Below the pieces are notes generated by a model. The model saw only the letters and a list, made by a program, of their open reading frames with translations, was not told the origin of the DNA and did not search any database. From the IMG/VR virus record IMGVR_UViG_2706794687_000012: 7,825 nt of DNA. One strand, written 5' to 3'. The DNA is from a virus. Lineage: Duplodnaviria; Heunggongvirae; Uroviricota; Caudoviricetes. Positions 71 through 7,471 of the stretch are shown here, piece by piece. Position 1 is the first letter of the stretch. Each line of letters begins with the position of its first letter. Position numbers and translations under genes: made by a program.

Positions 71-877
<807 letters not shown>

Positions 878-3481: not shown

Positions 3482-4192
3482 TTAAATAGCCTTTGCATAT
3501 TTGCTAGAAATCTTCGTAAGCTGCTCAATATCAGCCTGCATAGCAATCTTCTTAGCATCTTCATATTCTTTCACAAGCTCTTTCATAGCCTGAAGCTCTC
3601 TTGAGAGATACAACTTAACATTATCAAGTTGCTTGTTACGTGATGCCAAGATGTTCTGTCTAGCAATTTCAGCGAGTTCTTCATCGCTCTTATTAGTCAT
3701 GTAAATAAACTGACCAGCACCTCTTGATGCCTTAACCATCTTCACAATTCGATGTCCAGCAGGAAGACTACTAATCACGGCTGCGACGTTTTCTTGAAAA
3801 GTACCAAAACCATCATTATCTTCGTATTGGTAATAGACAAATGGTTTCTGTGACAATTCATCCTGAATCTCAAATTCTGACGGCTCAATAGCTGATTGCA
3901 TCAAGGTAACTTTGCTGTAAGCGTCATCTAATCTAAGGCGCTGTTCTTTCAGCAGTTGGTAATATTTCTTTTCAAGCTCAAGTAATGCTTCACTCTTGCA
4001 AATATCAGGCATCTCTTGAGGCTCAGGAGACACAAAGATGGTTGTTTTTGGTGACATCTTTAGCGATTGCTCAAGCTCAATACGCTTGTCATGCTCTTTA
4101 CGCTGAATAGTGATAGCTGGATGTTCAGTCTGTGGCGACCAGTCACTGAAGCTATCAATCACTTTGCCATTAATGTAAATATCATTTGTCAT
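3482..4192 (-). CDS. Hypothetical protein, 236 aa from the RBS-supported ATG; helical or coiled-coil-like; possibly a tail assembly chaperone or scaffold-like protein (speculative)
   Basis: Track ORF 3482-4240 (GTG start). I prefer ATG at 4192-4190 because of AGAAGAGGAAAAGCA-ATG (GAGG 7 nt upstream). The frame stays open upstream into the N block at 4252, so a longer gene cannot be excluded. C-terminal half has heptad-like charged helices (…ELAEIARQNILASRNKQLDNVKLYLSRELQAMKELVKEYEDAKKIAMQADIEQLTKISSKYAKAI). Confidence 0.7.
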   Translation of the reverse strand: MTNDIYINGKVIDSFSDWSPQTEHPAITIQRKEHDKRIELEQSLKMSPKTTIFVSPEPQEMPDICKSEALLELEKKYYQLLKEQRLRLDDAYSKVTLMQSAIEPSEFEIQDELSQKPFVYYQYEDNDGFGTFQENVAAVISSLPAGHRIVKMVKASRGAGQFIYMTNKSDEELAEIARQNILASRNKQLDNVKLYLSRELQAMKELVKEYEDAKKIAMQADIEQLTKISSKYAKAI

Positions 4193-4252
4193 TGCTTTTC
4201 CTCTTCTAAGCGGAAGTGTTTCAGTTTTTAAAAAGCACACCTGACAGCCTAT

Positions 4253-4562
4253 NNNNNNNNNNNNNNNNNNNNNNNNNNNNNNNNNNNNNNNNNNNNNNNN
4301 NNNNNNNNNNNNNNNNNNNNNNNNNNNNNNNNNNNNNNNNNNNNNNNNNNNNNNNNNNNNNNNNNNNNNNNNNNNNNNNNNNNNNNNNNNNNNNNNNNNN
4401 NNNNNNNNNNNNNNNNNNNNNNNNNNNNNNNNNNNNNNNNNNNNNNNNNNNNNNNNNNNNNNNNNNNNNNNNNNNNNNNNNNNNNNNNNNNNNNNNNNNN
4501 NNNNNNNNNNNNNNNNNNNNNNNNNNNNNNNNNNNNNNNNNNNNNNNNNNNNNNNNNNNNNN
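4253..4562. other. Masked or unresolved block (310 N)
   Basis: Run of n in the sequence; content unknown. Confidence 1.
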
Positions 4563-4596: not shown

Positions 4597-4657
4597 CTAT
4601 TACCATCATCTCATGCTTAAGGTTATTTGTCAACAGCTTTTTAACAGATTGGTAACA

Positions 4658-5093: not shown

Positions 5094-5351
5094 NNNNNNN
5101 NNNNNNNNNNNNNNNNNNNNNNNNNNNNNNNNNNNNNNNNNNNNNNNNNNNNNNNNNNNNNNNNNNNNNNNNNNNNNNNNNNNNNNNNNNNNNNNNNNNN
5201 NNNNNNNNNNNNNNNNNNNNNNNNNNNNNNNNNNNNNNNNNNNNNNNNNNNNNNNNNNNNNNNNNNNNNNNNNNNNNNNNNNNNNNNNNNNNNNNNNNNN
5301 NNNNNNNNNNNNNNNNNNNNNNNNNNNNNNNNNNNNNNNNNNNNNNNNNNN
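5094..5351. other. Masked or unresolved block (258 N)
   Basis: Run of n; lies between the stop of the 73-aa gene (5402) and the start of the 101-aa gene (5040); could hide a small gene or RNA. Confidence 1.
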
Positions 5352-5401
5352 AAAATAACGAAATGCTTTATTAGTCTGAAGTTGTACTGTGATAGTTTTC
5401 A

Positions 5402-5623
5402 TCAAGCACCCCATTCAGAAATAAGCTTAATTCCCTGCTCAAGCTGTTCAGGGTCGTTATAGTCGAGTATTACCAGTGGCTTTAATTCGTGTTTAAGCTG
5501 GTGGATTTGAGAGGGTTTTAATCGTTTGTTTGCTTTGAGGGTCACATCTTCAAATTCAGCATCTGCTAAATTCTGTCTGATTAGGTGGCGGCCAAGTGTG
5601 GAATATTGGAACCTATAACACAT
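5402..5623 (-). CDS. Hypothetical protein (73 aa), translationally coupled to the upstream 96-aa gene
   Basis: Track ORF 5402-5623; its ATG (5623-5621) overlaps the TAA (5625-5623) of the upstream gene as TAATG. Translation MCYRFQYSTLGRHLIRQNLADAEFEDVTLKANKRLKPSQIHQLKHELKPLVILDYNDPEQLEQGIKLISEWGA. Confidence 0.65.
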   Translation of the reverse strand: MCYRFQYSTLGRHLIRQNLADAEFEDVTLKANKRLKPSQIHQLKHELKPLVILDYNDPEQLEQGIKLISEWGA

Positions 5624-5913
5624 TAAACCTCCAATCTATCCGCCAGTTGATGGACCTTAGCGCTTAACACCTGAATCATTGAGCAACCTGCTACTGCGGA
5701 CTGTGCTTTGAGTAGTTCCAGTTGGCCCGTTGTGATTCTGATGGCCTTAGAACCCTCTGCGACGCCCTTAACGTTATCGAAAGGGCTAAGGTTTACCGAC
5801 TCTTTTAAAATCTCCCCAACAAGCGCTGTGTGCTTCATATCGGGATATTTGGCTTTGATTGCTGCCAGTCGTTCAAATGCCTCTGGCAAAAGGCGCGTAA
5901 CTGTGTGAGTCAT
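5623..5913 (-). CDS. Hypothetical protein (96 aa from the RBS-supported ATG; 106 aa if the upstream ATG at 5943 is used)
   Basis: Track ORF 5623-5943. The second in-frame ATG at 5913 has AAGGAGAT 7 nt upstream; the first ATG at 5943 has no obvious SD and sits about where the proposed minus-strand promoter would start transcription. Translation from second ATG: MTHTVTRLLPEAFERLAAIKAKYPDMKHTALVGEILKESVNLSPFDNVKGVAEGSKAIRITTGQLELLKAQSAVAGCSMIQVLSAKVHQLADRLEV. Confidence 0.7.
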   Translation of the reverse strand: MTHTVTRLLPEAFERLAAIKAKYPDMKHTALVGEILKESVNLSPFDNVKGVAEGSKAIRITTGQLELLKAQSAVAGCSMIQVLSAKVHQLADRLEV

Positions 5914-5949
5914 TGTAAAAATCTCCTTAAATCTCTTACTCATACTACA

Positions 5950-5978
5950 ATCTTAACATCTATTTAACATATTGTCAG
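5950..5978 (-). promoter_or_regulatory. Candidate sigma70-type promoter for the minus-strand 96-aa/73-aa operon (-35 CTGACA, 17-bp spacer, -10 TAAGAT)
   Basis: Minus strand reads CTGACA (5978-5973), 17 nt, TAAGAT (5955-5950). Its -35 overlaps the -35 of the divergent plus-strand promoter. Pattern match only. Confidence 0.3.
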
Positions 5979-6000
5979 TACCTCATTTACATGATACTAT
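5972..6000 (+). promoter_or_regulatory. Candidate sigma70-type promoter (-35 TTGTCA 5972-5977, 17-bp spacer, -10 TACTAT 5995-6000) driving the plus-strand small ORF
   Basis: Hexamers and spacing read directly; predicted start of transcription near 6007, RBS AAAGGA at 6038-6043, ATG at 6051. Confidence 0.4.
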
Positions 6001-6050: not shown

Positions 6051-6227
6051 ATGCATGATTTTTTCACAGCAATTATTGAATCTCATCGTTTTAGCTCGTT
6101 GGGCTTTGCGGTATTTATTGTGCTATTGGTGTTTTGCGTTATGAATCGAGTCATTACAAAAAAGACAAAGCTTACAATTCGACTTAAACTTCTTCGTGTT
6201 GAGATAGAGATTTCAGTAAATAAATAG
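6051..6227 (+). CDS. Small predicted membrane protein (58 aa from ATG 6051; 68 aa if GTG 6021 is used), only convincing plus-strand gene in the window
   Basis: Track ORF 6021-6227. RBS AAAGGA 7 nt before ATG 6051. Translation MHDFFTAIIESHRFSSLGFAVFIVLLVFCVMNRVITKKTKLTIRLKLLRVEIEISVNK: one hydrophobic segment followed by a basic tail. Divergent from the 96-aa operon and convergent with the 98-aa gene. Confidence 0.45.
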   Translation: MHDFFTAIIESHRFSSLGFAVFIVLLVFCVMNRVITKKTKLTIRLKLLRVEIEISVNK

Positions 6228-6234
6228 CTGGTGG
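6227..6234 (+). other. Chi octamer 5'-GCTGGTGG-3'
   Basis: Exact match at 6227-6234, overlapping the stop codon of the small plus-strand ORF; a near-match ATTGGTGG lies at 6262-6269. Confidence 0.5.
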
Positions 6235-6236
6235 CC

Positions 6237-6533
6237 TTACCGGCACTTTCCCTTGATAATATTGGTGGCCCTCAGATTACCGGGGTCACCGTCTTTTAAT
6301 CGTAGCTGGTGGACTGAATCCCATAAATCGTAATGATACAGCACCGCAAACTTCAAAGCGTCAATCTTTAAATCTGTCACATCATCGACGAAATAATAAT
6401 CCCTCCCTTCTTTCTTCGGTCGAATCCGGTAAACTTCCCCGTGAGTATCTTTCATCAAGTAACCTTCACGAGAAATGCTGTAACGTCTGAGTAAATAGTC
6501 ACGGTATTTTCTCTCGCCATTATAAGTTTTCAT
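6237..6533 (-). CDS. Hypothetical protein (98 aa), translationally coupled to the upstream winged-HTH gene
   Basis: Track ORF 6237-6533; ATG 6533-6531 overlaps TAA 6535-6533 of the upstream gene (TAATG); GGAGG about 9 nt upstream. Translation MKTYNGERKYRDYLLRRYSISREGYLMKDTHGEVYRIRPKKEGRDYYFVDDVTDLKIDALKFAVLYHYDLWDSVHQLRLKDGDPGNLRATNIIKGKCR. Confidence 0.7.
   Translation of the reverse strand: MKTYNGERKYRDYLLRRYSISREGYLMKDTHGEVYRIRPKKEGRDYYFVDDVTDLKIDALKFAVLYHYDLWDSVHQLRLKDGDPGNLRATNIIKGKCR
6305..6312 (+). other. Chi octamer 5'-GCTGGTGG-3'
   Basis: Exact match at 6305-6312, inside the 98-aa gene; second plus-strand copy within 80 bp of the first. Confidence 0.5.
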
Positions 6534-7471
6534 TAAAACATTCCTCCACCATAAACACGTCTGACTTTAACTTTTTCTTTCTTTGGCTCGGTGTGAGTTT
6601 TCTTTTTTGGTGTAAAAGTAAAATCATCGTCACTATCATCAAAGTCATCGAGGTCACTAACCTTGTTCTTTAGCTTCGCATTTCTGAATCTTTCTTTAAT
6701 TTCTGCTTTACGCTGTTCACGTTTCAATTCCTTTTCAGGGTCTTCTTCATCATCAAGGTCAACATCCGGTAATTCATCATCAGTGGCGGGGCACTGTGTG
6801 TTTTTATGGTCACTACTAGCAATCACATCAGAGATTTTATCTTCCTTTTTAACGACCTCTTTAGCAGCTTCACTATCAAGGTCATCTAAGTCAGATGTTT
6901 TAACAGTCTCTNNNNNNNNNNNNNNNNNNNNNNNNNNNNNNNNNNNNNNNNNNNNNNNNNNNNNNNNNNNNNNNNNNNNNNNNNNNNNNNNNNNNNNNNN
7001 NNNNNNNNNNNNNNNNNNNNNNNNNNNNNNNNNNNNNNNNNNNNNNNNNNNNNNNNNNNNNNNNNNNNNNNNNNNNNNNNNNNNNNNNNNNNNNNNNNNN
7101 NNNNNNNNNNNNNNNNNNNNNNNNNNNNNNNNNNNNNNNNNNNNNNNNNNNNNNNNNNNNNNNGCTGTAAGCTCTGTTAAAACCTCCGGTACTTCATCAA
7201 GTGAATAAACTTTAATAACACACTGATTGCTTGCAACGTTAGTTTTCTTGATTAAACCATGTGCCTCAAGTTGTTTCATACATGCAATCACGGATGTTCT
7301 TGTGATTCCAGCATACTGACCAAGATGAGCATATGAAGGGGTATAATATTGCCCCTTATCGTGATAAAACTTTTGTTCATTCAACATGACAGTGTAAATA
7401 ATACGGTCGGCAGCTTTAACGCCATTAGTCATCTGATAAATACGGTCATCAAACATGTGGAATTTTTCCAT
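6533..7471 (-). CDS. Winged-helix-turn-helix protein, putative replication initiator or replisome organiser (about 312 aa, middle 84 codons masked); charged low-complexity C-terminal region
   Basis: Track ORF 6533-7528; I prefer ATG at 7471 (AAAGGA 8 nt upstream). N-terminal part …RIIYTVMLNEQKFYHDKGQYYTPSYAHLGQYAGITRTSVIACMKQLEAHGLIKKTNVA… resembles the DNA-binding domain of phage or plasmid initiators. C-terminal part is acidic then basic (SDLDDLDSE…DVDLDDEED…SDLDDFDDSDDDFTF…PKKKTHTEPKKEKVKVRR). Reading frame is continuous across the 252-N block only if the N count is the true length. Confidence 0.6.
   Translation of the reverse strand: MEKFHMFDDRIYQMTNGVKAADRIIYTVMLNEQKFYHDKGQYYTPSYAHLGQYAGITRTSVIACMKQLEAHGLIKKTNVASNQCVIKVYSLDEVPEVLTELTXXXXXXXXXXXXXXXXXXXXXXXXXXXXXXXXXXXXXXXXXXXXXXXXXXXXXXXXXXXXXXXXXXXXXXXXXXXXXXXXXXXXXETVKTSDLDDLDSEAAKEVVKKEDKISDVIASSDHKNTQCPATDDELPDVDLDDEEDPEKELKREQRKAEIKERFRNAKLKNKVSDLDDFDDSDDDFTFTPKKKTHTEPKKEKVKVRRVYGGGMF
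6912..7163. other. Masked or unresolved block (252 N) inside the winged-HTH gene
   Basis: Run of n; length is a multiple of 3. Confidence 1.

Follow-up and report, generated by a model that had tools for sequence, protein, structure and literature searches.

The small gene pair at positions 5,402 to 5,913 is most likely the head of a four-gene early operon, A-B-C-D, carried by an approximately 11-kb chromosomal island of E. coli. Gene A encodes what is probably a single-chain tandem ribbon-helix-helix (RHH) protein that would repress its own promoter at a pair of short repeats, and gene B most likely encodes an accessory or modulating regulatory protein and no toxin. We put the probability of this statement as a whole at about 0.5; the fold of A, its DNA binding and the role of B are the parts that we infer, the last of these from the domain architecture of paralogous forms of B.

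The window, by which we mean the entire 7,825-nucleotide stretch that was analyzed, carries the four genes on its minus strand. The Shine-Dalgarno sites of the first two genes were read directly, and the low coordinate of gene C was obtained by its offset to the island copy L001.

5913-5626 (codons) with TAA at 5625-5623, minus strand: gene A, 96 aa, from the ATG at 5913
5928-5923, minus strand: Shine-Dalgarno sequence AAGGAG of gene A, 9 nt 5' of the ATG at 5913
5623-5405 (codons) with TGA at 5404-5402, minus strand: gene B (B1 form), 73 aa, from the ATG at 5623
5632-5628, minus strand: Shine-Dalgarno sequence GGAGG of gene B, within the final codons of A and 4 nt 5' of the gene B ATG
5187-5402, minus strand: gene C, 71 aa, WP_000849709.1
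5040-4735, minus strand: gene D, 101 aa, last gene of the operon, about 150 nt after C

An earlier, sequence-only reading of this DNA had described two small genes, the first with a strong Shine-Dalgarno sequence and the second starting at an overlapping TAATG. Both observations hold. The AAGGAG lies at the distance given above, and the base A at the junction is shared by the TAA of gene A and the ATG of gene B; the stop of gene A overlaps the next start in 10 of the 10 loci compared. The GGAGG of gene B is replaced by GGGGG in other loci. An alternative ATG at 5943 would extend gene A to 106 aa. This longer version is unlikely, since 40 of the 41 clusters of homologues use the 96/97-aa start and since position 5943 coincides roughly with the predicted transcription start. 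Analysis of substitution patterns yielded dN/dS values of 0.06-0.32 for gene A and 0.11-0.15 for the long form of gene B, and the comparison of the two short forms of B (B1 versus B2) gave a pN of 0.31 and a pS of about 0.75. A and B are genuine coding genes under purifying selection. RefSeq leaves the 73-aa gene B unannotated in every annotated locus carrying the short form, and a conserved, well-folding gene is consequently missing from the annotation of these islands.

The same reading had proposed a two-component module, and this part did not survive, because the unit is not closed. The TGA of gene B overlaps the ATG of gene C (TGATG, 5404-5400), an arrangement that is conserved among the compared loci, gene D lies further downstream, and terminator-like hairpins follow gene D in L001. 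These three observations led us to treat the unit as a four-gene operon. A stop/start overlap also couples the upstream replication gene to its 98-aa neighbor, so the overlap is a local rule and no hallmark of the A-B pair. Gene C accompanies the B1 and B2 forms of gene B and is absent from loci carrying the B3 form. Within the window, gene C is mostly hidden by the second of three runs of N (4253-4562, 310 bases; 5094-5351, 258 bases; 6912-7163, 252 bases); the runs also mask the central part of the replication-initiator-like gene.

The window belongs to an island that occupies positions 5215-16160 of L001 and is found in about 2% of complete E. coli genomes at several chromosomal sites (yecE, wrbA-ymdF, near yciI and in mdtG). 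One large and one small serine recombinase flank the island, which carries a replication-initiator-like HTH_36 protein, a tape measure, a Dit-like tail protein, sometimes a Dam methylase and a 236-aa protein without an assigned family; the tape measure and Dit are its only two tail genes. A relaxase is absent from all island copies examined. A scan at one genome per species recovered one related locus and IMG/VR provided four, while DNA searches of phage and plasmid collections returned no match. Literature searches found no description of the island or of tandem RHH phage regulators. The element has the appearance of either a phage satellite or a stable remnant. It is possibly an undescribed kind of phage satellite, and the A-B-C-D operon would be the obvious place to seek its induction switch.

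Searches of Pfam, PHROGs, PADLOC and NCBIfam yielded no match for protein A or for protein B, in agreement with the earlier observation that neither protein contains a nameable motif, and a PDB sequence profile search of A returned noise only. The AlphaFold model of A is of low confidence (pLDDT 58.9, pTM 0.48). This low-confidence model predicts a strand (residues 3-7) followed by two helices (10-22 and 28-35), a linker, and then a second strand (57-61) with two further helices (62-75 and 79-93). The protein is consequently modelled as two beta-alpha-alpha units, and its only two strands can pair solely with one another. The internal linker (38-55) is the sole disordered stretch of the model, and the final helix runs to residue 93 of the 96. 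The top Foldseek matches in the PDB were ten chains of the F-plasmid relaxosome (9f0x-9f12), followed by DndE (4lrv), a permuted single-chain Arc (1u9p) and ParG (1p94). These matches are weak (E 0.07-7, TM about 0.5) and all of them are single-chain or dimeric RHH proteins. Chain 9f0x_E was verified to be TraY. TraY of F is a monomer that contains the entire RHH dimer fold in one chain (PMC12117103).

Conservation within the A family centers on the same elements. Among 29 sequences, there is little or no variation in the strand residues HTVTR and AIRIT or in the G76-C77-S/T78 turn preceding helix 79-93, and the A-like protein of the diverged island L012, which is 37% identical, also retains the strands. 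The G-x-S/T/N turn of RHH proteins at the start of the second helix occurs in the second unit of A only. No RHH profile of Pfam matched A at default thresholds; a low-threshold scan of the two halves and of A variants gave only sub-threshold hits to Omega_Repress (E 0.1) and DndE (E 0.06-0.07). An hhalign comparison of the two halves was negative for an internal repeat. We consider it quite probable, on the basis of the model, that A is a single-chain tandem RHH DNA-binding protein.

The resemblance to TraY is one of form. Like A in its low-confidence model, F TraY (9f0x-9f12) is one polypeptide in which two RHH units make up the RHH dimer fold; it binds direct repeats as a monomer and heads the Foldseek matches of the A model. 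Unlike A, TraY has 131 aa, is the product of a tra operon gene and works at oriT together with a relaxase, none of which applies here, whereas A is located at the divergent promoter of a phage-like island. Membership of A in the TraY family was considered and rejected, as hhalign of the two sequences gave a probability of 0.7%, with no similarity, and no examined island copy has a relaxase. Protein A is outside the TraY family. Small beta-alpha-alpha repressors such as P22 Arc, Mnt, CopG and omega read DNA through a two-stranded ribbon and bind short repeats that overlap a promoter, and several of them govern divergent promoters. These repressors are homodimers of chains of about 45-80 aa, whereas A is seemingly a fused, asymmetric pseudo-dimer with halves unrelated in sequence. 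If the proposed mechanism is right, A adds a rare natural single-chain tandem RHH regulator, a type otherwise known mainly from F TraY.

The region upstream of gene A contains the following features.

5978-5950, minus strand: leftward promoter PL, with the -35 hexamer CTGACA at 5978-5973, a 17-nt spacer and the TG-extended -10 hexamer TAAGAT at 5955-5950
5972-6000, plus strand: divergent rightward promoter-like site (PR), TTGTCA-17-TACTAT, found by consensus scan
5970-5964 and 5959-5953, minus strand: ATGTTAA direct repeats 11 bp apart (ATGTTAA-N4-ATGTTAA), in the PL spacer and overlapping its -10; candidate operator
6051-6227, plus strand: 58-aa open reading frame with one hydrophobic helix, presumed product of the rightward promoter
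6227-6244, strand not given: GC-rich hairpin between the convergent 58-aa frame and upstream 98-aa gene

The promoter that had been attributed to the pair is a reasonable call, as a sigma-70-like site lies upstream and the block is conserved across diverged loci. The PL block is kept in 7 loci even where the flanks have diverged, and the -35 is a perfect TTGACA in 6 of the 7. In L001 the PL site scores 10/12 and the rightward equivalent reads TTGTCA-17-TATTAT. The -35 hexamers of PL and of the rightward site overlap. As a mere count, the promoter-like sites of the consensus scan are at chance level (5 found versus 4.5 expected), and the same is true of ATGTTAA in the window (3 found versus 1.7 expected). 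The repeat pair is also present in L001, L002, L006, L007 and L008, and it adjoins the promoter of the diverged L012 island. We infer that protein A binds at these repeats. In the copies from the three STEC genomes L009, L014 and L015, the ATGTTAA repeats show single changes relative to one another. On the other side of the promoters, the 58-aa frame shares 44% identity with the annotated L013 protein WP_000506009.1, and the hairpin at 6227-6244 forms the divider between the A operon and the replication operon.

Unlike that of A, the model of B is confident (pLDDT 92.7, pTM 0.80); in it, three strands are followed by a short helix, a fourth strand and a long helix (beta-beta-beta-alpha-beta-alpha). 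A Foldseek search of the PDB with this model returned nothing at E < 1, and a PDB sequence profile search returned nothing below E 0.02 and nothing related. The sole Foldseek match in BFVD was an unnamed 127-aa viral protein (E 7e-3, TM 0.73). A HicB-like identity was entertained for B on account of its three strands, helix and strand and of the DNA-binding domain in its long forms; it was dropped, as no HicB structure appeared in the fold search. The invariant polar residues of B are R16, D26, T28, Q39 and D54.

Comparison of islands was more informative. The slot after gene A is occupied by three forms, namely B1 (73 aa, the form in the window), B2 (76 aa, 54% identical to B1) and B3 (128-141 aa). 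An hhalign comparison of short- and long-form profiles gave a probability of 96.5% (E 7.5e-10) over 71 columns, within the N-terminal 85 positions of the long form, and a joint HMM search retrieves both forms. The extra C-terminal 40 residues of the long form weakly match HTH_28, HTH_7 and HTH_23. An exhaustive HMM search of 1.84 billion representatives produced 16 matches to B, all of them family members or helix-turn-helix repeats. Two distant long forms among these, P0092 and P0093, have helix-turn-helix-like C-termini, and P0093 has a weak precomputed match to HTH_Tnp_ISL3. A tblastn search of phages with the long form gave no match, and no functionally characterized relative of B was found by the HMM search or by Foldseek against the PDB and BFVD. 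Based on the profile homology of short and long forms and on the helix-turn-helix of the latter, B1 appears to be the version lacking a helix-turn-helix within a small family of presumed DNA-binding proteins. If the mechanism outlined below is right, B would represent a new small domain found both alone and joined to a helix-turn-helix.

At the distant B homologue loci L010 and L011 there is no adjacent tandem-RHH gene; the RHH genes nearby in L010 are single ones. The L010 locus (ENA contig k119_18569, 4700-8600) places its distant long-form homologue in a different small element with a resolvase, an RHH_3 protein and a second RHH-like open reading frame flanking a helix-turn-helix-like protein, together with a tyrosine integrase and the major capsid protein (Phage_cap_E). 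This element may be a capsid-encoding satellite.

The mechanism that we favor would proceed as follows. Genes A, B, C and D would be produced together as the early operon of the island, read leftward from the divergent promoter region. The two RHH units of an A monomer would pair their beta-strands into a DNA-reading ribbon, giving a pseudo-dimer, and this ribbon would bind the ATGTTAA repeats, 11 bp apart over the PL spacer and -10, beside the overlapping divergent promoter. In this manner A would serve as an autorepressor or switch like Cro, Arc or Mnt, repressing PL and influencing the divergent promoter. On the common mRNA, B would be translated with the help of its GGAGG and of the stop/start overlap with A. 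Its small alpha/beta domain is fused to a C-terminal helix-turn-helix in most related islands, for which reason B is placed in a regulatory family; the short B without helix-turn-helix, then followed by the separate gene C, would likewise act in regulation and not in killing. Early operons of the lambda type begin with cro and then cII. The arrangement here is similar in that a small repressor-like first gene faces a divergent promoter and precedes a second small DNA-binding regulator (the long-form B with its helix-turn-helix). It differs in that there is no homology, A would be an RHH and not a helix-turn-helix protein, the B of the window lacks the DNA-binding domain, and the divergent gene encodes a small membrane protein where that of lambda encodes a CI-type repressor.

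The modelled fold of A is also what recommends a different role for it, as a TraY-like architectural DNA-binding accessory factor at an origin, a packaging site or a recombination site, with B as a helper. DndE and the relaxosome protein TraY, which are the best structural matches of A, are DNA-binding members of processing complexes. The island contains two serine recombinases and a replication initiator, but no excision factor was identified in it; A could, for example, be a directionality factor for the large serine recombinase. The fold by itself cannot tell architectural from regulatory RHH proteins. Since A lacks sequence similarity to TraY, since neither a relaxase nor dnd genes are present in the island, and since the sole conserved repeat pair that we found sits inside a promoter, we regard an architectural role as unlikely.

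Comparable doubt attaches to the proposal that the position of B, or of B and C, holds an exchangeable accessory cassette whose early expression is governed by A. Candidate functions would include anti-defence, interference with a helper or competition between islands, and B1 could be a dominant-negative decoy of long-form B. The slot after A accepts three alternative forms and, in one island, an HNH insertion, and B1 retains the N-domain without the helix-turn-helix. Among 5426 complete E. coli genomes, A was found in 127 and B3 in 128, while B1 was found in only 20 (all at least 95.9% identical in nucleotide sequence), which suggests a recent spread of B1. Against the cassette stands the lack of similarity to any known anti-defence or defence protein in PHROGs, PADLOC and Foldseek searches of the PDB and BFVD. 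Moreover, a single homologous N-domain runs through all forms, as would be expected of alleles of one function more than of unrelated cargo. A more elaborate version strikes us as improbable: A-B-C-D would be the genetic switch of undescribed, approximately 11-kb phage-satellite-like islands, the N-domain of B would be a new fold sensing or titrating a partner, and B1 together with C would act as a decoy against the long-form B of rival islands or of a helper phage.

The sequence-only reading had compared the pair to regulator-effector modules and to type II toxin-antitoxin systems. The architecture is as it stated, and the likeness of A to a DNA-binding regulator agrees with the first comparison; the toxin-antitoxin interpretation is the part without support. 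According to it, A would be an RHH antitoxin and autorepressor, and B a toxin of new fold neutralized by A. Gene order, small sizes, the stop/start overlap and the separate promoter all fit, A resembles an RHH protein as many antitoxins do, and the handful of invariant polar residues in B could be taken in the same sense. As in ParD/ParE, CcdA/CcdB and RelB/RelE, whose antitoxins are RHH proteins, both genes are small, the first would encode a DNA-binding protein, the second starts at the stop of the first, and the promoter would be autoregulated. The pair departs from these systems in having no toxin homology or fold, no antitoxin tail, non-cognate partners and a unit that is not closed but continues into genes C and D. 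The profile searches against toxin-antitoxin families that had been suggested as a check gave no toxin, antitoxin or defence match to A or B in Pfam, PHROGs, PADLOC or NCBIfam. Nothing in these profile searches assigned B to a recognized toxin superfamily such as RelE/ParE, MazF/CcdB, VapC, HicA, Doc, Zeta or GNAT. The confident B model found no PDB structure at E < 1, though most toxin superfamilies have been solved. In its low-confidence model A ends 3 residues past the last helix, without a disordered toxin-binding tail, while homologues of B bear a DNA-binding helix-turn-helix and the distant ones are not preceded by a tandem RHH gene.

The pairing of alleles is equally difficult to reconcile with a cognate toxin and antitoxin. 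The A and B alleles reassort freely among islands: A proteins that are 92-98% identical pair with B1, B2 or B3, which are only 22-54% identical to one another, and near-identical B1 proteins (98.6%) pair with A variants of only 71% identity. In L012 a 90-aa HNH endonuclease gene (6729-7001) occupies the exact junction of the A-like gene and B3 and has stop/start overlaps with both; a homing insertion at the gene junction is a possible origin. In three STEC genomes (L009 9275-9552; L014 and L015 3272-3552), gene A carries a common frameshift after codon 34 while B1 and C are intact, as are the GGGGG of B1 and the promoter hexamers. The island in these three genomes is additionally broken by an IS3 element. 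The combined evidence from homology, fold, reassortment, the HNH insertion and the frameshift makes a toxin-antitoxin function very improbable, and a false lead is thereby removed from the annotation.

Outside the operon, several observations concern the remainder of the window. The first 121 bases match nothing in the island. The Dit-like "baseplate" gene (122-815, minus strand) matches its L001 homologue in two frames, 815-669 and 661-122, and looks frameshifted in the window copy. The 236/237-aa protein at 3485-4195 (minus strand) carries a RefSeq "transposase" label, but neither Pfam nor PHROGs recognizes it. A candidate non-coding RNA of about 215 nt (L001 11030-11282) separates gene D from the 236-aa gene; the window shows the following part of it.

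4605-4633, minus strand: promoter of the candidate non-coding RNA, the body of which is under the N run at 4253-4562

The candidate belongs to no Rfam family, and an Rfam search of the window was likewise without a match. In L001 it possesses a near-consensus promoter (TTGACA-17-CATAAT with a TG), a 5' hairpin and a strong intrinsic terminator, and its fold has a z-score of -4.26, with 0 of 200 shuffles folding as well.
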